Assembly (NCBI GenBank): GCA_003151475.1
Contig: PLXQ01000018.1
Coordinates: forward strand, 1-64,000
Source of the DNA: Acidimicrobiaceae bacterium
GTDB taxonomy: Bacteria; Actinomycetota; Acidimicrobiia; Acidimicrobiales; UBA8190
Direction of reading: 5' to 3'
DNA length: 64,000 nucleotides
Shown here: positions 6,954 through 64,000 of the stretch, one piece after another
Layout of the letters: each line of letters starts with the position of its first letter
How positions within the stretch are numbered: position 1 is the first letter of the stretch
The notes under the pieces: model-generated
What the model was told of the DNA's origin: nothing
Databases searched by the model: none
What the model saw: only the letters and a program-made list of their open reading frames with translations
Position numbers and translations under genes: made by a program

Positions 6954-7116
6954 AGATCAGCCACTCCGGGCGGCTCAGGCAGCTCGGGAGTTGGGAATTC
7001 CTACGAAAGAGCTCCTCCGGCTCGTACACGAGCGAAAGATCCGTTACGTCATGGTGGACGGGATTGCTCACATTCCGATTGATGCCGTGGAGGATTACCG
7101 TTCCAAGGCCTCGTGA
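6946..7116 (+). CDS. Excisionase-family helix-turn-helix DNA-binding protein (56 aa)
   Basis: Internal start of ORF 6706..7116. MAEDQPLRAAQAARELGIPTKELLRLVHERKIRYVMVDGIAHIPIDAVEDY matches the excisionase/MerR-like HTH_17 pattern. ATG 6946 is preceded by GGAGG. Confidence 0.5.
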   Translation: MAEDQPLRAAQAARELGIPTKELLRLVHERKIRYVMVDGIAHIPIDAVEDYRSKAS

Positions 7117-8110: not shown

Positions 8111-8497
8111 TCAAATGGCGCGGGGCTCCATCGTCGGTGTCTTTTTTGTTTCGTCCGAGACCGGCTCGAAGTCGATGATGAGCTCGGCGCCGAGGGCCCG
8201 GGCGATCCGGTCGAGACTGATGACCGTGGGCGACACCTGGCCCTTTTCGAGCCGGGCGATGGACGGCTGAGAGGTCTTGGCCCGTCGGGCCAGCTCCGCC
8301 TGGCTCACCCCGCTGCGCAGCCGGGCGGCCCGTACGGCGCTTCCCACCATGATGGCCGTCCGGGCCCGCTCGTAGCGGGCGAAGGCGTCCTCTCCCCTGC
8401 TGGGTCCGGGTCGGGGCGGAACGACCGGTGACTCCCCCGGCCGGGTTCTCCGGGTCGTTTGCCCACCAGGGGGCGCGGGATTGGTCGAGCGAGCCAT
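8111..8497 (-). CDS. XRE-family helix-turn-helix transcriptional regulator
   Basis: HTH_3 motif GVSQAELARRAKTSQPSIARLEKGQVSPTVISLDRIARALG. Second ATG (8497) chosen because the first ATG (8518) sits inside an AT-rich promoter-like stretch. Confidence 0.7.
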   Translation of the reverse strand: MARSTNPAPPGGQTTRRTRPGESPVVPPRPGPSRGEDAFARYERARTAIMVGSAVRAARLRSGVSQAELARRAKTSQPSIARLEKGQVSPTVISLDRIARALGAELIIDFEPVSDETKKTPTMEPRAI

Positions 8498-8523
8498 ATC
8501 AAAGATGGAATATACCATTTATG

Positions 8524-8566
8524 GTCTGAGGATCTGAGGATCTGAGGATCTGAGGATCTGAGGATG
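8524..8566. repeat. Tandem 8-bp repeat (gatctgag / tgaggatc) x5 in the divergent intergenic region
   Basis: Read directly: atggtc tgaggatc tgaggatc tgaggatc tgaggatc tgaggatg. It sits between the XRE regulator (minus) and the Kelch-Ig protein gene (plus). Confidence 0.9.
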
Positions 8567-8780
8567 CTCGGGTCGCCCTCCGGGGTAATCCGAGATATCC
8601 AGCCACCGAGAGGCATCTCGTCACTTATGACAATAGTGATGGGGTGGCCACGCTGCGTAAAATAATCCCTGATGCGCGCCTTGCCACGTGCGACGGGGTT
8701 GTCCAGGTTGGAGTCCCTTCACCGAGCAGGAGCAGGCGAGGGGCTGGCCTGAGGAATCCGGGTCCGTCCCGGGGGGAGAT

Positions 8781-18797: not shown

Positions 18798-19445
18798 ATG
18801 AGCACCGAGAAGAGAAGTTCCGCCGCCAGCGACGCTCCCCGGGTCGCCCTGCACCGGCGGGTCATCGAGTTCGACGCCTATGACGAGGGGGACGCTGTGT
18901 CCATCACCGGTCGACTCCGTGACGAACGTCCGTGGGCGAGGGGGACAGACAAGGTCGAGCACGTCCACGACATGGATCTGTCGCTGACGATACGCAAGGA
19001 CGACCTGACCATCACCGAAGCCACCGCCACCATGACCCTTTTTCCGCACACCGAATGTCCAAGCATCACCGACGCCTTCGGCGACCTCGTCGGACTGAGT
19101 GTGAGTCGCGGGTACACGCGCGCCGTGCAGGACCGGTTCGGCGGCGTACGCGGATGCACGCATCTCGAGCAACTGGCGCGCACCGTGGGTCCCGTGGTGA
19201 TCCAGGCCGTCACCTCGGCCCGGGCCCGCGACCGCGACTGGCAGAACCTCGACGTGGCCCCGTCGGATCGCCCCACTCTCTTTCCGCGCAACACCTGTCA
19301 TATCTGGGCCGACGGAGGAGTAGCCGAACAGAAGCTCGAAGCGGGATGGCGACCCGGTGAGCGGTCCGGTTATCCGGCGCCGCCTGTTCAAGTATTTCTC
19401 CGCCGGTCGACGTCCGGCTCGGGCTCGTCAGTCGACGCGCCGTAA
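18798..19445 (+). CDS. DUF2889-like protein
   Basis: Size and the CTHLEQL motif region resemble the DUF2889 family; assignment is from memory of the family pattern only. Confidence 0.5.
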   Translation: MSTEKRSSAASDAPRVALHRRVIEFDAYDEGDAVSITGRLRDERPWARGTDKVEHVHDMDLSLTIRKDDLTITEATATMTLFPHTECPSITDAFGDLVGLSVSRGYTRAVQDRFGGVRGCTHLEQLARTVGPVVIQAVTSARARDRDWQNLDVAPSDRPTLFPRNTCHIWADGGVAEQKLEAGWRPGERSGYPAPPVQVFLRRSTSGSGSSVDAP

Positions 19446-27158: not shown

Positions 27159-27228
27159 GGCCGTCCCCCCGGAATTCAGCAGTTTTCTCAATGGTAAGGG
27201 TTCACGGTGTTCCAGGACATCGTCGTAA

Positions 27229-28074
27229 TTGAGGAGGATGGGCGCCGCCCGCCAACCCCCTCCCTCCACCCACCCAATGTGGGCCCAATCGGGCGTCGAA
27301 CTCGATACCGATGGACGGCATAGCCTCGCGCCCGTGTCGGTACGTCGACGGGGATCATGGGCTTCCTTAGGGGCTGCTGGTGCTTACCGCGACCCCTGGT
27401 CGGTCTCCAGTGCACCAAACGCGTTGTCAGGAGTCTCAAGGATCGCTGCCCGTGTCAGCACGCCGACGTCGACGATCACGACGGAGCGGGCGGTCGCAGA
27501 GCCCGGTCCGTCAGGCTCGATCCGGATTCCGGTGGGACCGGTCACGACGGCCGCGCCCACTTTGGACTGCACGACCGGCGAACTGGTTTTGACCGTTCAC
27601 CCGGACCGGGCGAGCTACAACTGGGGTGACACGATGATCGTCACGCTGCACCTGGCGCTCACGTCCGGCCCGGCTTGTCGAATACCCGCCGACGCGTGCA
27701 CGCCTCAGGTGGTCGTCCATTTCTACGACCCCACCTTCGCCAACGGCACCGGCCTCCTCGGCCCCTTTACGGTGCCTTGTTCCTCGGACCCGCTTCTGGT
27801 CGCGTCCGGGTCGGGAGCCGCCGTCGGAGTGCCGGCACGGTTTGGCTCCAGCTCAGGGAACACCGACTGTCAGGACTCCCACGATGGCGTCGAACAGTGG
27901 GACGGACATCTCGGGTGGCAACTGGGCCCAGGCCACATTCTGAGCGCCGATCCGTTTTACGTCCGGGTCGTCACCCCCGCCCGGGCCTCGTCCACAACCA
28001 CCACCACATCGACGACCCCGCCAGCCACCACCACGTCGACGTCAACCCCACCAACGACGACATCGACGACTTAG
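27229..28074 (+). CDS. Hypothetical protein with Cys-containing domain and C-terminal Ser/Thr/Pro-rich linker ending at the stop (possibly truncated)
   Basis: ORF as given; no convincing signal peptide or start in frame. Ends ...ASSTTTTTSTTPPATTTSTSTPPTTTSTT*, a linker with no domain after it. Lies just before the outermost island boundary repeat (28371..28412). Confidence 0.3.
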   Translation: MRRMGAARQPPPSTHPMWAQSGVELDTDGRHSLAPVSVRRRGSWASLGAAGAYRDPWSVSSAPNALSGVSRIAARVSTPTSTITTERAVAEPGPSGSIRIPVGPVTTAAPTLDCTTGELVLTVHPDRASYNWGDTMIVTLHLALTSGPACRIPADACTPQVVVHFYDPTFANGTGLLGPFTVPCSSDPLLVASGSGAAVGVPARFGSSSGNTDCQDSHDGVEQWDGHLGWQLGPGHILSADPFYVRVVTPARASSTTTTTSTTPPATTTSTSTPPTTTSTT

Positions 28075-29041: not shown

Positions 29042-29863
29042 ATGATTGATGACGATCTACCGCTCGGAGTCCGTGCTCGGTATCGACTAGCGCGAATGTT
29101 TGAGAACCGGGTGGCGGCTCATCTGCCAGACCGCCATCTCCGGATTCCTGGCCCCGACGGCAAGATCTATTTGAATCTTCGGGAGTCAGGAATGACTGTC
29201 AACCGTGCCTTTCGAGTCTATGAATATTGGATGATGTCCTTTGTGCGCTCGTTGCTCGAACCCGGGATGACGGCGATTGACGTCGGAGCGAATCAGGGCG
29301 ATTACACATTGCGGTTCGCCCACCTGGTAAAAGATGGCGGAAGGGTCCTTGCGTTCGAACCCGATCCCGAGAACTGCCACTGGTTACAAAAGAGCATTGA
29401 GGCCAACGACTACAGATGGGTTGAGGTCCACCAGATCGCTCTCTCAGAGCGAGAAGGATCCGCTACCTTCTATCCTGGCGGCAAGTCGGGGTGGGGATCG
29501 CTCAAACCTGGTAGCCGTAATGCAAAGAAGCGTCCGCCATTCGACGTCAGGACACGTCGGTTGGATGATGTGTTGTCTGATCTTGCGATCGGCAATGTCG
29601 ATCTCATCAAGGTGGATGTCGAGGGGAGCGAACTGGGTGTTCTCAAGGGGTGCCAGAGCCTTCTCTCCGATAGCAAGAACGTCACTCTGGTCTTGGATGT
29701 CGACGCTGAAACCGAAGATGATGAGCGCCAGGAAATCTACGAATTCCTGAATTCCACCTGTGGCCTGCAGGTTTGGAAGCTAGGCAAGACGATCGAGTCA
29801 TCGCGAAATCTGGAGGCCGCTGGCGCCGTCGTGGCTAGCAAGCGACCCAACATGTCACGCTGA
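29042..29863 (+). CDS. FkbM-family methyltransferase
   Basis: SAM-binding motif TAIDVGANQGDYTLRFA...GRVLAFEPDPEN and the C-terminal FkbM-domain pattern. Local GC is about 53% against about 70% for the flanks. Confidence 0.8.
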   Translation: MIDDDLPLGVRARYRLARMFENRVAAHLPDRHLRIPGPDGKIYLNLRESGMTVNRAFRVYEYWMMSFVRSLLEPGMTAIDVGANQGDYTLRFAHLVKDGGRVLAFEPDPENCHWLQKSIEANDYRWVEVHQIALSEREGSATFYPGGKSGWGSLKPGSRNAKKRPPFDVRTRRLDDVLSDLAIGNVDLIKVDVEGSELGVLKGCQSLLSDSKNVTLVLDVDAETEDDERQEIYEFLNSTCGLQVWKLGKTIESSRNLEAAGAVVASKRPNMSR

Positions 29864-55880: not shown

Positions 55881-57569
<1,689 letters not shown>

Positions 57570-57667
57570 TTAGACGACGGGTGGTCGGCGGCGGGGGAAC
57601 ATCGTCACCGCCCTTGCATCATCATCGGGCCGTCGGCTTCGTCGGCGCCCTCGACGCCGTGGCCCTC

Positions 57668-59320
57668 TCAGCGTCGTTTGCGGCCGCCGGTAGTGGAGGC
57701 CCCGGTGGTGGAGGCCTCGGTCAGGAGCTCCTCGGCGTGCCTGCGGGCCGTGGCCGAGTCGGGCTGGCCGGAGAGCATCCGGGCCAGCTCCACCACCCGG
57801 GCTTCGGGTTCGAGGGAGTCGGTGATAGCCACCGTGCGCTCGCCGGTGACCTCTTTGTGGACGGCCACCTGGTGACCGGCGGAGGCGGCCACCTGCGCCA
57901 GATGGGTGACGACCAGGACCTGATGGCGCGAGGCCACCTCGGCCAGCGCCTGGCCCACGGCCAGGGCCGCCTCCCCGCCAATGCCGGCGTCCACCTCGTC
58001 GAAGACGATGGTGGGGGGCGCGTCGGTCAGCACCAGGCGCAGTGCCAGCATGGCCCGGGCGAGCTCTCCCCCCGACGCCACCTTGGCCAGCGGGAGCACG
58101 GCCTCCCCCGGGTTGGCGCCCAGGAGGAACGCCACATCCTCCCCGGGGTCGCGCTCGCCCACCGTCACCTCGAGGCGGGCCCGGGGCATGGCCAGCTTCT
58201 GCAGCCGCGCCTCGACGGCCCGGGCCAGCTTCGGCGCTCCCCTCCGGCGCGCCGCGCCCACCTCGGCTTCGACGGCGGCGAGGCGGACCTCGGCGCTGTC
58301 GAGCTCGGCCTGGAGCACCGAGGCGCGTTCCTCGACGGACTCGAGCGTTGTCACCCGTAGGCGGATCTCCTCGGCGTAGGCGAGGACGCCGGTGATCTCC
58401 TCGGCGTATTTCCTCGACAGCTCGTGCAAGAGATTGCGGCGGGTGCGGATGTCGGCCAGGCGCTCGGGGTCGTCCTCCCAGGTTTCGACGACCAGGCGGA
58501 GATCGGAGGCCACGTCGGCGGCGTCGGCTTGGAGCGCACTCAGCCGGGCCGCCAACTCGGCCAGGGGGGCCCGGCCGGCCAGGGCACCGTGGGCCAGACC
58601 GATCTGATCGAGCGCGCCGGTGGGGCCGCGCCCGGTGGACGTCGCACTGCCGCTCGCGTCTTCGGCATCGAGCGCGGCCAGGGCGGCAGCGGCGGCCTGG
58701 CGGTGGGCCGAGGCCTCGGCCAGGCGCTCCTCCTCCCGAGCGAGCGCCGCGTCCTCGTCCGGATCGGAGAGGCCGGCGCTGTCGATCTCGGAGAGCTGAT
58801 GGCGTAACAGGTCGATCTCGCGGGCCCGGGCCCGCTCGTCGCCGCCCAGGGCGTCGAGCTCGGCGGCGAGCGTACGGCAGGCCGCACGGGCGGCGATGAG
58901 GGGGTCGAGATCGATGGCGGCGAAGGCGTCGAGCGACCGGCGCTGGACGGCCGGATCGAGAAGCGACTGATGGGCGTGCTGGCCGTGGAGGTCGACCAGG
59001 CGCGCCCCGGCTTCGGCCAGCGCCGACACCGGGGCCATACGGCCGTCGATCCAGGCCCGTGACCGCCCTTTCACGGCGATGGCCCGGGCCAGGATCACCT
59101 CTTCGTCGTCGACGATGAAACGGCCCTCGACAAGGGCCTGATCGGCCCCGGGTCGCACGAGGACAGGATCGGCCCGCCCCCCGACCAGGAGCTCCAAGGC
59201 CTCTACCAGAAGGGTCTTGCCGGCACCGGTCTCACCGGTGAGCGCCGTCATGCCCGGCTCGAGATCGAGGGTGACGGATTCGATGACGCCCAGGTCCTTC
59301 ACCCGGAGTTCGACGAGCAT
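57668..59320 (-). CDS. recN: DNA repair protein RecN
   Basis: Walker A GETGAGKT and the SMC-like coiled coil. Confidence 0.95.
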   Translation of the reverse strand: MLVELRVKDLGVIESVTLDLEPGMTALTGETGAGKTLLVEALELLVGGRADPVLVRPGADQALVEGRFIVDDEEVILARAIAVKGRSRAWIDGRMAPVSALAEAGARLVDLHGQHAHQSLLDPAVQRRSLDAFAAIDLDPLIAARAACRTLAAELDALGGDERARAREIDLLRHQLSEIDSAGLSDPDEDAALAREEERLAEASAHRQAAAAALAALDAEDASGSATSTGRGPTGALDQIGLAHGALAGRAPLAELAARLSALQADAADVASDLRLVVETWEDDPERLADIRTRRNLLHELSRKYAEEITGVLAYAEEIRLRVTTLESVEERASVLQAELDSAEVRLAAVEAEVGAARRRGAPKLARAVEARLQKLAMPRARLEVTVGERDPGEDVAFLLGANPGEAVLPLAKVASGGELARAMLALRLVLTDAPPTIVFDEVDAGIGGEAALAVGQALAEVASRHQVLVVTHLAQVAASAGHQVAVHKEVTGERTVAITDSLEPEARVVELARMLSGQPDSATARRHAEELLTEASTTGASTTGGRKRR

Positions 59321-59340
59321 GGCCGACGTCGCCGGGCCGA

Positions 59341-60180
59341 TCAGCGGTCGGCCAGGTGGAACCTGGACCGCAAGATGGAGTGGAAGTCGCGGTCGCCCAG
59401 AGAGACGAGGCGCGCGTTCACCGGGCCCTCACGGCACTCGACGGCGTCGCCCGGTTGCAACTCGGTGACGCTGACGCCGTCGACCACGAGAATGCCCGGC
59501 CGCGGCGCGGCCACCTCCAGCCGGACCCACTGACGGGGCTCGAGCACGATGGTGCGGTCGAAGAGCATGTGGGCGGAGATGGGCGTCACCACGATGGCGC
59601 GGAGCAACGGGCTCAGGATCGGTCCCCGGGCCGACAGGTTGTAGGCCGTCGATCCCGTGGGGGTGCACACGAGAAGACCGTCGGCCAGGTAGGTGACGAA
59701 GGGGCGTCCGGCGATCGACGTGCTCACCCGGACGGTGTGGCCCGGCACCGTCTTCTCCACCACGGCCTCGTTCAGCACCATGAAGGGCGAGCCGGCCCCG
59801 GGCGACTGTGACCCGGCCCGGATGACCTCGATCTCGAGGGTCATACGTTCCTCGATTTCGTAGTCGCCGGCCACGAAACGCTCGAGCGCCTGTTCTAGCG
59901 CGGCGGGCTCCACTTCGGTGAGGTAACCGAGCTGGCCCAGGTTCACGCCGAGGATGGGGATGCCGTGTCCGGCGGCCATGGCCACGGTCCGGAGCATGGT
60001 GCCGTCACCGCCGAGGGAGACGGCGAGATCGACGTCGCCGTCGAGCGACCCCGGACTGCGGGCGGGATCGACCAGGCGCGTCACGGTGTGGCCGTTGGCC
60101 GTCAACCAGGCACCGGCACGCGCCGCGAGCTCCGACGCCACCTGGCGTTCGGGGTGGACCACGAAGGCGACCGAGACCAT
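59341..60180 (-). CDS. nadK: NAD+ kinase
   Basis: GGDGTML motif and NAD kinase core. Confidence 0.95.
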   Translation of the reverse strand: MVSVAFVVHPERQVASELAARAGAWLTANGHTVTRLVDPARSPGSLDGDVDLAVSLGGDGTMLRTVAMAAGHGIPILGVNLGQLGYLTEVEPAALEQALERFVAGDYEIEERMTLEIEVIRAGSQSPGAGSPFMVLNEAVVEKTVPGHTVRVSTSIAGRPFVTYLADGLLVCTPTGSTAYNLSARGPILSPLLRAIVVTPISAHMLFDRTIVLEPRQWVRLEVAAPRPGILVVDGVSVTELQPGDAVECREGPVNARLVSLGDRDFHSILRSRFHLADR

Positions 60181-60186
60181 CGGGGC

Positions 60187-61077
60187 CTACCGGTCCCCGG
60201 GGCCGGCGAACGGGCGAGCGTCGGGCGAATCCGGACCATCAGGAGGCTCGGCGGCGTCAGGGGAGGCGGCGACCGCGGCGTCGAGGACGGCGGCGATGTC
60301 GACGACGGGCGGAGCCGTGTCCCCGGCGGGGATCCCGGCCCACAGGAGGTACTCCGCGTTGCCGGCCGGACCGAGGACGGGTGAGGCCATGGCGCCCATG
60401 ATGGTCGCTCCGGCGTTCGTGAGGGCGGAGGCGACCTTCTCGAGCGCCGCCCGTCGGAGATCGGGCCGGCGGATGACACCACGGCCCCGGCTGACCTCGA
60501 TGTGGCCCACTTCGAACTGGGGCTTCACCAGAAGGAGTAGATCGGCGCCGGGGGCGGCCAGCTCACCGACCAGAAGAGGGACGACCACGGCGAGGGAGAT
60601 GAACGACAGATCGGCCACGATCAGATCGAAGCGCTCCCCCGCTTCATCGCTCGCCAGGCTGCGGATGTTCGTTCTCTCGCGGACTGTGACGCGCCGATCA
60701 GCGCGGATGCGGGGATGGAGTTGGCCGTAGCCGACGTCGACGGCCATGACCGAGGCGGCACCGCGGACGAGGAGGCAGTCGGTGAAGCCACCCGTCGAGG
60801 CGCCGGCATCGAGAGCACGGCGGCCGGCCACGGTGACGGGAAAACGCTCGAGGGCGGCATCGAGCTTGTCGCCGCCGCGCGACACGAAGCGACGGATCTT
60901 CAGGTCGACGACGATGGCATCGCTCTCGGCCACGAGGCGCGCCGGCTTGTCGGCCACCGCCCCACCGACGAGGACAGCGCCCCGGGAGACGACGTCATGG
61001 GCATGGGCCCGGGATGGCACGAGACCCCGCCGGACCAGCTCGAGATCGAGTCGGCGGCGGACGCTACGTCGAGTCAG
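60187..61077 (-). CDS. tlyA: TlyA-family rRNA (cytidine-2'-O)-methyltransferase
   Basis: S4 domain (LDLELVRRGL), FtsJ-like motif DAGASTGGFTDCLL and LVKPQFEVG. The N-terminus aligns to TlyA starting near RRRLDLELV; the only in-frame start there is CTG 61077 (CTGA overlap with the upstream stop), so the start is uncertain. The extension to 61497 in the ORF track is rejected. Confidence 0.8.
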   Translation of the reverse strand: MTRRSVRRRLDLELVRRGLVPSRAHAHDVVSRGAVLVGGAVADKPARLVAESDAIVVDLKIRRFVSRGGDKLDAALERFPVTVAGRRALDAGASTGGFTDCLLVRGAASVMAVDVGYGQLHPRIRADRRVTVRERTNIRSLASDEAGERFDLIVADLSFISLAVVVPLLVGELAAPGADLLLLVKPQFEVGHIEVSRGRGVIRRPDLRRAALEKVASALTNAGATIMGAMASPVLGPAGNAEYLLWAGIPAGDTAPPVVDIAAVLDAAVAASPDAAEPPDGPDSPDARPFAGPGDR

Positions 61078-61631
61078 GGGCGCGCCTTGCCGGTGGAAGA
61101 GGCGGCCGTCTTCTTCGCCGCCTTGGCCGTGGCCTTCTTGGCTGGAGCCTTGCGGGCGGCGGCTTTCTTGGCCGTGGTGGCCTTCGCCCCCGCCCGGGTG
61201 GTCGCGGTCTTCTTGGCCGCGGCCCTCTTGGCCGGCGACTTCTTGGTCGGAACCTTGCGCGGCGGGGCCTTCTTGGCCGTTGTGCCGCGGGGCGCCGTGC
61301 GGCCACGACCGGGTCCGCGATGGGTGGCCTTGCGGGCCGCCGTCTCGGCCCGGTCGAGGACCTCGGCCACCCGATGGGCCAGATCGTCCATGCTCGTGAT
61401 GCCCATGTCGGCCAGTTGGGTCTTCACTTCGCCGCGCACCGTCGTGAGCAGAGTGTCGGAGCGATCCCGGCTCGTCTTCACGAGATCCTCCACCCATTCC
61501 TGCGCCCGGGTGGTCTCGACCTCACCGGTCTGGATCAGCTCGTGCACGAGCTCTTCGGCCCGGGCGCGGGTGATCTGGGTCAGAGCCAATCCGGCTTCGA
61601 GATAGCGCTTGAGACTGTCATTGGCGGTCAT
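61074..61631 (-). CDS. Phasin-like protein with Lys/Ala/Pro-rich histone-H1-like C-terminal tail
   Basis: Helical N-terminal region (SLKRYLEAGLALTQITRARAEELVHELIQTGEVETTRAQEWVEDLVK) and a C-terminal KKAPPRKVPTKKSPAKRAAAKKATTTRAGAKATTAKKAAARKAPAKKATAKAAKK tail. ATG 61631 chosen; TTG 61667 is possible. Confidence 0.55.
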   Translation of the reverse strand: MTANDSLKRYLEAGLALTQITRARAEELVHELIQTGEVETTRAQEWVEDLVKTSRDRSDTLLTTVRGEVKTQLADMGITSMDDLAHRVAEVLDRAETAARKATHRGPGRGRTAPRGTTAKKAPPRKVPTKKSPAKRAAAKKTATTRAGAKATTAKKAAARKAPAKKATAKAAKKTAASSTGKARP

Positions 61632-61691
61632 GGGAGCCACGCTACGACCCGTGATGGCAGCCAGCAAGAGCGGGCGAGGGGCCGTGGGTGC

Positions 61692-62459
61692 TTATGACGA
61701 CAGGTGCCGATCGGTGACAGCGGCGAGGTCGGCGGCGTCGATCTGCGGCGCCACGGTCAACTCTTTTTCATCGGCTCCGGTCACTCCCGAGCGCACGAGG
61801 GCGAAGGGAACAGCCAGTCGTCGGGCGAGGAGTCCGTCGGTGGAGGGCCGGTCCCCCACCACCAGACTGGCGTCGGGGGCCCGGTGGCCGAGGAGGGCCA
61901 CGATGGGCTCGTGGGGCTTGCCGGCCACTACGGGTTCGCTCTGCGCGGCGGTGGCCACGGCCGCCAGCAACGCCCCGGCGCCGGGGAGCAGTCCCGTGGG
62001 CGTCGGATAGGTGGCGTCCTCATTCGTGCCCACCAGACGCGCTCCCCCGTGGACGGCGGCGGCGGCCGTGGCCAGCATGGCGAAGTCGAAGTCCCGGGTG
62101 AGGCCGACGACGACGGCATCGGCCGGGCCGCGCTCCACGACCGTCACCCCCCGGTCCGCCAGGGCCTCGTGGACGCCGGCGCCGGCGCAGACCACGGCCG
62201 TGGTGCCGGGGGCGAGCAACGACGCCGCCGCCTGGGCCGATGTGACGAGGTCGGAGGGCCCGGCTGGTATGCCGACGGCGGCCAACTGCGCCACGAGCTC
62301 GGCCAGGGTGGGCAGTGCGTTGTTGGTGGCGAAGAGCACCCCGATGCCGGCGGCGCGCAGTCGGGCGATGGCGTCAGCGGATCCGGGGATGGCCTGCTGG
62401 GCCAGCCAGATGACGCCGTCGAGATCGATCACCCAGGTGCCGCCGCCATGATCCGTCAT
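61692..62459 (-). CDS. HAD-IIA family hydrolase
   Basis: DxD motif VIDLDGVIW and the HAD-IIA (NagD-like) layout. Confidence 0.85.
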   Translation of the reverse strand: MTDHGGGTWVIDLDGVIWLAQQAIPGSADAIARLRAAGIGVLFATNNALPTLAELVAQLAAVGIPAGPSDLVTSAQAAASLLAPGTTAVVCAGAGVHEALADRGVTVVERGPADAVVVGLTRDFDFAMLATAAAAVHGGARLVGTNEDATYPTPTGLLPGAGALLAAVATAAQSEPVVAGKPHEPIVALLGHRAPDASLVVGDRPSTDGLLARRLAVPFALVRSGVTGADEKELTVAPQIDAADLAAVTDRHLSS

Positions 62460-62521
62460 GCGGCCATGTTGGCAGAGGTGTCACGAAGGTTGGCAGAGCA
62501 GTCACGACGTCGGCCGAGGAG

Positions 62522-63589
62522 TCACGAACCGAAGCTCAGTTGTTCGGGCGGCGTCGTCGCAGACGGTTGCGGGGACGGAGCCGGGATGTCACGAGGCCCG
62601 AGCGCCGGGTGCCACTGCCGCGTCGGTGGGGCCTGGGGTCGGAGGCGGACCACGGTGCGTTGCACGGGGGCAACGATCTCCGCTTGCTCGGCCTTCGGCA
62701 GATACGCACCGCGGTAGCGCCGGGTGAGGGCCGCGGCCAACGTTGGATCCTTGCCTCGCAGATCGGCCAGGAAGTGTTCCTTTACGCCTGGTCGCAGGTG
62801 CAGCGTCACCGGGGTGACCGAGACCGCTCCCGCTTCGAGACAGGCGGCCGTGACCTCCTCGAGCTGTTCGGCGGAATCCGACAGCCCGGGGATGATCGGG
62901 GCGATGAGGACACCGGTGGGGATGCCCGACTCGTTCAGTCGCCGTACGGCCTCCACGCGTTGGCGGGGGTGGGGCGTGCCCGGCTCCGTGGCCTTCCACA
63001 CCCGCGCGTCGAGTGTGCCGATCGAGAAATTGCAGCGCACTTCGGCGCGGCCGGCAGCCGCCACCAAGCGGTCGAGATCGCGCAGGATCAGGGTCGACTT
63101 GGTCAGGATGGAGAACGGATTTCCCACTTCGGCCAGGGCGTCGATGATGCCCCGGGTCAGGTGGTACTTGCCTTCGGCGCGCTGGTAGGGATCGGTATTG
63201 GTCCCCATGGCGATGACGTCACCGTTCCAGCGCGCGGAGCGCAGCTCGGCCCGCACGCGTTCGACGGCGTTGATCTTGACCACCAGGGTGCGTTCGAAGT
63301 CCTCCCCGATGCCGAGTCCCAGATACTCATGGGTGGGCCGGGCGAAACAGTAGGTACAGGCGTGGCTGCAACCCCGGTAGGCGTTGATGGTGTGGCGGAA
63401 CGGAACGCGCGACGCCTCGGGCACGGTGGAGATGATCTGCTTGGCCCGGACGTGGAGGAACTCGAGGCCCCGGTAGGCGCCGATCCCGACGTGTCGGTGG
63501 ATGAGTTCCTCCTCGGCGAACAGCGCGGCCTGGCCCCCGTCGTCGTCGGCCAACCGCCACCGGAAGTCCTTGGATCCGGGCACCGTCAC
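62522..63589 (-). CDS. Radical SAM protein, spore-photoproduct-lyase-like DNA repair family (Rv2578c-like)
   Basis: CSHACTYC (CxxxCxxC) cluster and family-typical flanks (VPFRHTINAYRGCSHACTYCFARPTHEY; MGTNTDPYQRAEGKY). Start trimmed to GTG 63589 (or 63583), immediately downstream of the SOS box; the upstream part of ORF 62522..63745 crosses an AT-rich promoter region. Confidence 0.85.
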   Translation of the reverse strand: MTVPGSKDFRWRLADDDGGQAALFAEEELIHRHVGIGAYRGLEFLHVRAKQIISTVPEASRVPFRHTINAYRGCSHACTYCFARPTHEYLGLGIGEDFERTLVVKINAVERVRAELRSARWNGDVIAMGTNTDPYQRAEGKYHLTRGIIDALAEVGNPFSILTKSTLILRDLDRLVAAAGRAEVRCNFSIGTLDARVWKATEPGTPHPRQRVEAVRRLNESGIPTGVLIAPIIPGLSDSAEQLEEVTAACLEAGAVSVTPVTLHLRPGVKEHFLADLRGKDPTLAAALTRRYRGAYLPKAEQAEIVAPVQRTVVRLRPQAPPTRQWHPALGPRDIPAPSPQPSATTPPEQLSFGS

Positions 63590-63595
63590 ATGATA

Positions 63596-63611
63596 GCGAA
63601 CATCTGTTCGA
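63596..63611. promoter_or_regulatory. LexA operator (actinobacterial Cheo/SOS box) gCGAAC-ATCT-GTTCGA
   Basis: Matches TCGAAC-N4-GTTCGA at 11 of 12 positions. It lies 7 nt upstream of the radical SAM start inside a roughly 50-bp AT-rich stretch (63611..63660) with -10-like hexamers on the minus strand (TAAATGATATAGAT). Confidence 0.6.
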
Positions 63612-63680
63612 TACTGTATCTGATCTATATCATTTATGATCGATATCTGAAGTGGTATCGCATCTCGAGCTCGAAAGCGA

Positions 63681-64000
63681 TCACGACGGAACCGAAGCAG
63701 AGCGACAGGCTCCCGGCGCCAGGGAGAACGTGACCCGAGCGGCACCGGGATCGTTCTGGAGAAGCAGGTGCGAGGCCCCGGCGGCCGACGTGATTGTCGC
63801 CCCTGTGGCCGTGGCGCAGTAGCCGTCGGGGTACCGGGCCGGTGCCGTCATCACGACCGTCGGAGCGGCAATGGCCGGGTCGACCTCGTAGCCAAGGGTG
63901 AAGGTCCTCGTAGCCGGGTCGAAGGCCGTCTCCGTCGGATCACCGGCGATCGCCTCGGCGTAGGGGGTGGCCAGGGCGGCCATCTGGGGCAGAAGCCGGG
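63681..64000 (-). CDS. Hypothetical protein, 3'-terminal fragment (gene continues beyond window end)
   Basis: Open minus-strand frame ending at 63681 (...CATATGATITSAAGASHLLLQNDPGAARVTFSLAPGACRSASVPS*); no homology recognised. Confidence 0.3.
   Translation of the reverse strand, partial: RLLPQMAALATPYAEAIAGDPTETAFDPATRTFTLGYEVDPAIAAPTVVMTAPARYPDGYCATATGATITSAAGASHLLLQNDPGAARVTFSLAPGACRSASVPS

Follow-up and report, generated by a model that had tools for sequence, protein, structure and literature searches.

How is the radical SAM gene near one end of this stretch of DNA, which comes from an uncultured Acidimicrobiales bacterium, switched on and off? The gene belongs to the Rv2578c/PA0069 family, and the short AT-rich spacer in front of it holds an inverted repeat that resembles an operator of LexA, the repressor of the SOS response. 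In what follows, the window is the whole stretch of DNA that was analysed, 64,000 nucleotides in length. Our answer is that the repeat, at positions 63596..63611 of the window, is very probably the LexA operator of the radical SAM gene. The site itself, its conservation among related loci, its fixed spacing to a −10 element and a start codon, and the presence of the same motif at lexA and recA genes of the class Acidimicrobiia can all be read directly from the DNA, and from these observations LexA is predicted to bind at 63596..63611. Two features define the locus:

63596..63611, unstranded: probable LexA operator (SOS box or Cheo box), at −13..−28 from the predicted transcription start, assigned by conservation and matrix score

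62522..63583, minus strand: radical SAM gene of the Rv2578c / PA0069 (COG1533, ‘SplB’) family, encoding 353 amino acids from its predicted start, assigned by translation and profile scores

On the + strand the box reads gCGAACatctGTTCGA / GCGAACATCTGTTCGA, and in the orientation of the gene it reads TCGAACAGATGTTCGC. It agrees with the consensus TCGAAC-N4-GTTCGA at 11 of 12 positions and with the core of the Cheo box, CGAAC-N4-GTTCG, at all 10, which bears out both the sequence and the coordinates given for it in a first-pass annotation of this DNA. That annotation also had the box overlapping the start of the gene; instead, the box lies outside the coding sequence, within the 91-nt spacer that separates the radical SAM gene from an upstream glycoside hydrolase (GH5) gene, both genes being on the minus strand. 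Throughout the 64 kb, 63596..63611 is the only site with at most one mismatch to TCGAAC-N4-GTTCGA, and the four sites with two mismatches (at 19324, 38063, 38792 and 59882) reach no more than 9.6 bits with a weight matrix for the lineage that is described below. One hundred dinucleotide-preserving shuffles of the window give an expectation of 0.15 sites with at most one mismatch, and 15 of the 100 hold one such site. The box might thus be a chance match in an AT-rich spacer with no regulatory role, an explanation to which these weak within-window statistics lend some colour; taken alone, the count in the window is suggestive and not conclusive.

Orthologous loci speak directly to that explanation. 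A scan of one genome per species yielded 80 loci at 56–75% identity, mostly from metagenome-assembled genomes (MAGs) of Acidimicrobiales and Acidimicrobiaceae; a scan of metagenomes yielded 80 further loci, and four close relatives were fetched singly. Once duplicates had been removed, 149 unique loci remained, which span 56–99% protein identity and comprise 1.83 Mb of sequence. Directly upstream of the gene, 127 of these 149 loci carry a CGAAC-N4-GTTCG site with at most one mismatch (perfect core in 92, one mismatch in 35). The box holds the same position relative to the −10 element and the start codon in these loci while its flanks diverge, such that in the wider family the columns around the box contain almost no information and the flanks have a GC content of 0.64–0.71. 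Furthermore, perfect-core sites are nearly confined to a few settings: among the 110 present in the 1.83 Mb, 92 belong to this promoter, 14 lie upstream of dnaE2 or imuA′-imuB, and only four, located elsewhere, are unexplained. Conservation of this extent is far beyond chance and indicates that the site is functional. It contradicts a chance match, to which we now assign a negligible probability.

The loci that lack a proximal box are also informative. In those that were examined (L025, L029, L035, L037, L038, L040, L043, L077 and L084, where L numbers are our labels for individual loci), the radical SAM gene immediately follows a gene for a protein of approximately 1,100 amino acids, which is the error-prone DNA polymerase DnaE2 (NF004225, 1525 bits). 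Most of the loci without a proximal box have this arrangement, and the 14 perfect-core sites at dnaE2 or imuA′-imuB come from loci of this kind. The same placement downstream of dnaE2 applies to L132 and L135–L138, as judged by the position of the box, and the loci with an unboxed gene and dnaE2 are labelled Mycobacteriales or Actinomycetota. A perfect TCGAAC-N4-GTTCGA precedes dnaE2 in those loci, and in three of them a second box is found upstream of imuA′ (NF058630, 177 bits) and an imuB-like gene. Boxes upstream of dnaE2 and of imuA′-imuB were recorded at these positions:

L025: 2600 and 6559

L029: 3320 and 6641

L037: 3850 and 6559

The dnaE2 and imuA′-imuB genes make up the classic LexA-controlled mutagenesis cassette. 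Thus, the radical SAM gene either has a box of its own or is joined to a mutagenesis cassette under LexA control.

Boxes were also encountered at other positions in the collected loci. An extra conserved SOS box is situated about 60 nt upstream of a Uma2-family gene (PF05685, putative restriction endonuclease) in L071 (position 1309) and L079 (position 291), and in these two Acidimicrobiales/Microthrixaceae MAGs the Uma2-family gene is a possible lineage-specific target of LexA. In L023, a perfect-core box, GCGAACACACGTTCGA, occurs at position 7114 and precedes the radical SAM gene by 3.1 kb. No open reading frame of at least 100 amino acids with high third-position GC was seen around this site, and no downstream target for it was identified.

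The placement of the operator within the promoter suggests how control might be exerted. Four features near the start of the gene matter here:

63590..63595, minus strand: −10 hexamer TATCAT (actinobacterial TAnnnT type), which directly abuts the operator

63581..63583, minus strand: GTG, the probable true start codon and transcription start, 6 nt past the −10 hexamer, assigned by conservation

63587..63589, minus strand: GTG used by gene callers and by the first-pass annotation (355 amino acids), which touches the −10 hexamer

63612..63617, minus strand: expected −35 position with a 16-nt spacer; ACAGTA, a poor match

In the orientation of the gene, the window reads TCGAACAGATGTTCGC TATCAT GTGACG GTG CCC GGA TCC. 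This architecture is a general property of the boxed loci, as TAnnnT occurs 0–1 nt past the box in 114 of 127 (background 0.0006 per position) and an in-frame ATG or GTG occurs 5–9 nt past the hexamer, mostly 6–7 nt, in 116 of 126. The recA sites of Acidimicrobiia likewise have a box followed by TAGnnT. At the radical SAM gene, the operator fills the promoter spacer at −13..−28 and TATCAT begins at the first base past the box, an arrangement that points naturally to promoter occlusion. With a LexA dimer in place, RNA polymerase would be denied access to the −10 element and spacer, and the gene would stay off. Upon DNA damage, RecA-stimulated self-cleavage of LexA would then free the promoter, and expression of the gene would be expected to rise. 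The earlier proposal that LexA occludes the promoter or the transcription start is supported by the abutment of the box and the conserved −10 element, which is consistent with such a mechanism.

The −35 region is less uniform. Close relatives carry TTGATA, TTGGTA or TTGCTA at this position, and TTGnnn directly precedes the box in only 24 of the 127 boxed loci. A scan with the sigma-70 consensus found no promoter, although this consensus is uninformative for actinobacterial promoters. No promoter motif of the PafBC/RecA-NDp type was seen by eye, with no formal scan for it.

The same conserved spacing bears on where the protein begins. At actinobacterial promoters, a TAnnnT −10 element that is followed within a few bases by a start codon, without a Shine–Dalgarno sequence, produces a leaderless mRNA. 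GTG 63583 stands 6 nt after TATCAT, within the 5–9 nt range, and lacks a Shine–Dalgarno sequence; the radical SAM mRNA is therefore most likely leaderless, with transcription predicted to start at GTG 63583 itself. GTG 63589, by touching the −10 hexamer, is probably upstream of the transcription start. Indeed, GTG 63583 aligns with the starts of L087, L088, L089, L094 and L095 (M/V-R/P-G-S-x-x-F-R-W-R). This alignment and the conserved spacing of box, −10 element and start codon suggest that the gene probably starts at GTG 63583, two codons downstream of the called GTG 63589, and encodes a 353-amino-acid protein. The distance of 7 nt between box and GTG that was noted originally refers to GTG 63589, and becomes 12 nt when measured to the probable start at 63583. 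In L090 (position 1127), gene calling places the start at an ATG that belongs to the LexA box itself. This case and the call of GTG 63589 at the −10 element indicate that start codons assigned in MAGs are unreliable for this leaderless gene.

The gene product carries the cluster motif CSHACTYC (C-SHA-C-TY-C, that is, CX3CX2C) and passes the cut-off of the Pfam model PF04055 Radical_SAM (62.4 bits, cut-off 29.5). Its best family is NCBIfam NF038135, ‘Rv2578c family’, with 367.9 bits against a cut-off of 430 and with 301 of 317 profile positions covered, followed by NF033668, ‘PA0069 family’, with 235 bits. The models for spore photoproduct lyase are not satisfied (TIGR04070, 27 bits versus 400; PF20903 SPL, 24.7 versus 27), and the similarity to Pfam SPL is local, covering the 64 residues from 170 to 233. 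The first-pass description of the gene as Rv2578c-like is upheld by the best match to NF038135, whereas its other label, ‘SPL-like’, overstates what is a distant resemblance, with lyase scores far under threshold. The protein has in common with Bacillus subtilis SplB a radical SAM fold, the CX3CX2C motif and weak local similarity, but it is not a spore photoproduct lyase by the TIGR04070 score and falls below the Pfam SPL gathering score of 27. An identical protein (P0001 in our numbering) is encoded on Stordalen Mire metagenome contigs and on PLCV01000060.1 (GCA_003135715.1), and the closest named homologues are all labelled Acidimicrobiales.

Is the repressor that recognizes this operator LexA? 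Searches by tblastn with Escherichia coli RecA, Mycobacterium tuberculosis LexA and B. subtilis LexA located no lexA or recA gene, either in the window or among the radical SAM loci; one match of 21 residues was discarded as spurious. A direct search with M. tuberculosis LexA returned, as expected, mycobacterial proteins only. LexA proteins of Acidimicrobiia were reached through representatives at 50% identity and their cluster names, by way of HSF85506.1 (P0401), named ‘LexA [Acidimicrobiia bacterium]’, and then its relatives. The Acidimicrobiia lexA loci (L171–L183) have the common gene order nrdR, lysM, divergent lexA, dapF, miaA, miaB, rny and recA, in which the divergent LysM gene is reminiscent of the Rv2719c-lexA arrangement in M. 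tuberculosis. In six independent Acidimicrobiia genomes, three boxes stand in tandem in the lysM-lexA spacer, about 125, 94 and 70 nt ahead of the lexA start (−125, −94 and −70), and the last of them is always TCGAACATATGTTTGG. Upstream of recA there is one perfect-core box, which is followed by cTAGnnT. One locus serves as an example:

9873, 9905, 9929 and 16714 of L171: lexA and recA boxes

A lineage weight matrix was built solely from 23 lexA and recA sites of Acidimicrobiia. With this matrix the window box scores 25.4 bits, training sites score 16.8–26.8 bits and the next position in the window scores 9.6 bits. The first-pass annotation had held that a clearly different consensus at lexA and recA would count against its LexA box; at the level of the class Acidimicrobiia, the same motif is present at both genes.

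A near-perfect box, CCGAACTGCCGyTCGA, also occurs within the recA coding region (L171 16531, L175 14952, L176 14583 and L180 14633). Its coding strand, TCGAGCGGCAGTTCGG, specifies the conserved RecA N-terminal peptide I-E-R-Q-F-G, and this intragenic box is probably a by-product of coding constraint, not an operator.

Several points weigh against LexA control of the window gene. The comparison with lexA and recA was made at the level of the class, not of the genome. The training sites of the matrix were picked by their similarity to the consensus, so the independent information they bring is their location and not their sequence. Given the poor −35 sequence ACAGTA and the lack of a match in the sigma-70 scan, we infer promoter strength and the exact transcription start from conservation only. 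With 368 bits against a cut-off of 430 for NF038135, the protein can count only as a candidate for an exact functional equivalent of Rv2578c. Lastly, LexA is assigned in this lineage through motif identity and gene associations, and a genuine operator could in principle be bound by some other regulator that recognizes a similar inverted repeat. Such a regulator would have to account for a motif that is present in triplicate at lexA, that recurs at recA in Acidimicrobiia and at imuA′-imuB and dnaE2 in related MAGs, which is the signature of a LexA regulon, and that has been shown by experiment to be bound by LexA in mycobacteria and Streptomyces. We consider it quite improbable, and LexA remains by far the best candidate for the protein that acts at 63596..63611.

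Control of this gene family by LexA has precedents. In M. tuberculosis, Rv2578c/Rv2579 corresponds to LexA chromatin immunoprecipitation sequencing (ChIP-seq) peak 20, has an SOS box with one mismatch and exhibits RecA-dependent induction (PMC3381160), which agrees with the statement in the first-pass annotation that the mycobacterial orthologue is inducible by DNA damage. An SOS box at Rv2578c / Rv2579 is credited to Davis et al. 2002, as cited in PMC3381160. Rv2578c and the window gene have the same best family (NF038135) and the same consensus, TCGAAC-N4-GTTCGA, from which each deviates by one mismatch. They differ in that the window derives from Acidimicrobiia and not Actinomycetes, its upstream gene is co-directional instead of divergent, its protein scores 368 bits against the cut-off of 430, and the window is known from sequence alone. 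In Streptomyces venezuelae, LexA ChIP gives a peak at the radical SAM gene vnz_31145, which is induced 20-fold by mitomycin C and whose product is said to resemble enzymes for the repair of UV cross-links between thymines (PMC9380542). Compared with the perfect core in the window, the site listed for Streptomyces (TCGACCGTTCGCTC, at −61) is far more degenerate; the two genes are compared here only as radical SAM genes.

More widely, LexA regulation of splB (COG1533) has been described in Actinobacteria, Alpha-, Beta- and Gammaproteobacteria, Verrucomicrobia and Bacteroidetes, and splB has been proposed as a core SOS gene (PMC4951493, PMC3323433, PMC8565304). The LexA motifs of the other phyla named here are TGTTC-N4-GAACA, CTGT-N8-ACAG, GTTC-N7-GTTC and CTAA-N5-TTAG, whereas the window box is of the Gram-positive GAAC-N4-GTTC type. 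The same family is under LexA in these phyla, and some of the related MAGs studied here link the gene physically to dnaE2. LexA control of COG1533 genes is thus already published in several phyla, and the present locus is a further example, in Acidimicrobiia.

The class Acidimicrobiia branches deeply within Actinomycetota, has hardly been cultured and is abundant in soils, peat and waters. Judged by titles and abstracts, full-text literature searches retrieved no description of an SOS system in this class. The loci described above indicate that Acidimicrobiia use the canonical Gram-positive LexA motif and that their regulon has lexA (with three operators), recA and the SplB-like gene among its conserved members. 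They strengthen the case, already made in print, for COG1533 as a core SOS gene, provide a probable correction to the start of the radical SAM gene for MAG annotations, and leave its operator and promoter well defined. The sole remaining oddity is a clade-specific AT-rich repeat element that lies upstream of the operator.

This element is part of an island, 63570..63691, that contains the lowest-GC 60-nt stretch of the 64 kb (minimum GC 0.32). The value of about 35% GC originally given for 63600..63660 is close to the 0.333 measured in 63600..63659. Other low-GC islands in the window (8476..8569, 27171..27233 and 29161..29250) have minima of 0.40–0.43 and are far less extreme. The upstream regions of relatives at 56–75% identity are not AT-rich, with a GC content of 0.64–0.71, and thus the island is specific to the close clade. 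Its component features are:

63621..63632, minus strand: 12-mer TGATATAGATCA, at −38..−49, with inverted arms TGAT/ATCA around ATAG

63621..63631, minus strand: 11-mer core GATATAGATCA, within TGATATAGATCA

63637..63647, minus strand: second 11-mer copy, GATATCGATCA, at −54..−64, 16 nt upstream of the first copy

63653..63659, minus strand: GATACCA element, picked out by eye from printed upstream sequences; weak

63610..63620, unstranded: palindrome GATACtGTATC, present and not conserved

Palindromes in this region had been put forward in the first-pass annotation as binding sites for a second factor. GATACtGTATC does exist in the window, but it is absent from L087–L090 and L093–L097 and was not listed by a repeat search at its settings. 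Because it is not conserved in close relatives, we reject it as a functional element. The other palindrome, ‘TGATC...GATCGA’, is better described as the two direct-repeat copies of the 11-mer. The GATACCA element recurs in L093 and L094, with the variants AATACCA in L095 and TATACCA in L097.

The 11-mers are therefore the part of the island that calls for an explanation. With at most one mismatch, the core occurs in the window only as the two copies at 63621..63647, and the 2.28 Mb of fetched DNA contain it at this promoter in members of the close clade (about eight relatives) and as six scattered single matches. One possibility, which would add to LexA control instead of replacing it, is that a second DNA-binding protein, which could be an activator or be associated with the nucleoid, binds the 12-mers in 63612..63660 and places the promoter under dual control. 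The near exclusivity of the pair to this promoter suits such a role, as do its positions near −43 and −59, which are typical of activator sites, in a window that lacks a good −35 element. Moreover, when the window is compared with L089, the 11-mers are better kept than the spacers and the arms co-vary, the L089 version TGGTATAGACCA having both arms changed together (TGGT..ACCA versus TGAT..ATCA). However, the element is restricted to about eight close sequences. The 12-mer is present in L001–L006, L089, L091 and L093, is degenerate in L088, L090, L094, L095 and L097, and is missing in L087 and in every relative at 56–75% identity. No known motif was recognized in it, no candidate regulator gene is nearby, and the independent sequences are too few for a significance test. 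A second protein at these repeats is thus conceivable but unlikely. The island might instead act as an UP-like element and in this way make up for the poor −35 sequence.

The repeats could also be neutral relics of a tandem duplication of a 16-nt segment that included the −35 region and the left half-site of the operator. The repeat period of 16 nt equals the length of the box, and the left half of the operator (AGTATCGAACA) forms the third unit in this register, being identical to both upstream copies at 7–8 of 11 positions; in L089, TGGTATCGAACA and TGGTATAGACCA are identical at 10 of 12. The changes fall at positions of LexA recognition, as would be expected of decaying copies. Arguing in the other direction, Tandem Repeats Finder reports nothing in the island at a score of 30, and the 11-mers seem better conserved between species than the spacers, unlike neutral decay. 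We hold this origin to be a tentative one, slightly easier to credit than a second binding protein. It is an alternative for the island only and leaves the reading of the adjoining operator as it is.

A role for the spacer at the level of RNA was considered and set aside. The predicted stability of 63584..63690 is no better than that of shuffles (z −0.35), which led us to reject both an RNA element in the spacer and a terminator for the gene upstream. An Rfam scan of 62400..64000 gave only a sub-threshold match to a snoRNA, which we took to be due to chance.

The genes on both sides of the radical SAM gene complete the locus. Upstream lies one co-directional neighbour:

63681..64000, minus strand: 3′ end of the GH5 glycoside hydrolase gene, with a TGA stop at 63681..63683

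Its product has 593 amino acids and contains the domains PF00150 Cellulase and PF18564. On the 3′ side of the radical SAM gene are genes for a HAD hydrolase, an HC2-like basic protein, an FtsJ/TlyA-type methyltransferase, NAD kinase, RecN, CTP synthase, a NUDIX protein and XerD. A scan for intrinsic terminators found no terminator-like site in 57500..63700. The spacer between the radical SAM and HAD hydrolase genes folds worse than shuffles (z +1.87), which indicates that a terminator hairpin is absent there. On a more speculative view, which we rate as doubtful, the sub-clade would have a second layer of control, in which TGATATAGATCA at about −43 and −59 is bound by a regulator or nucleoid protein together with LexA, and, given the lack of a terminator, transcription from the de-repressed promoter might also read through into HAD-HC2-tlyA-nadK-recN and place recN under indirect SOS control.

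Two minor features were observed in this downstream region. A spacer of 62 nt separates the radical SAM stop codon from the ATG at which the HAD hydrolase gene begins. Within it, at 62468..62506 on the minus strand, is a direct repeat of 18 nt (CGTGACtgCTCTGCCAAC / CGTGACacCTCTGCCAAC) whose copies start 21 nt apart, and a third CGTGAC overlaps the stop codon. Further downstream, the gene at 61074..61667 on the minus strand encodes a 197-amino-acid protein rich in lysine and alanine, which matches the HC2 histone-H1-like model weakly (29.9 bits, cut-off 40); it lies between the HAD hydrolase and TlyA-type methyltransferase genes and is kept in close relatives.

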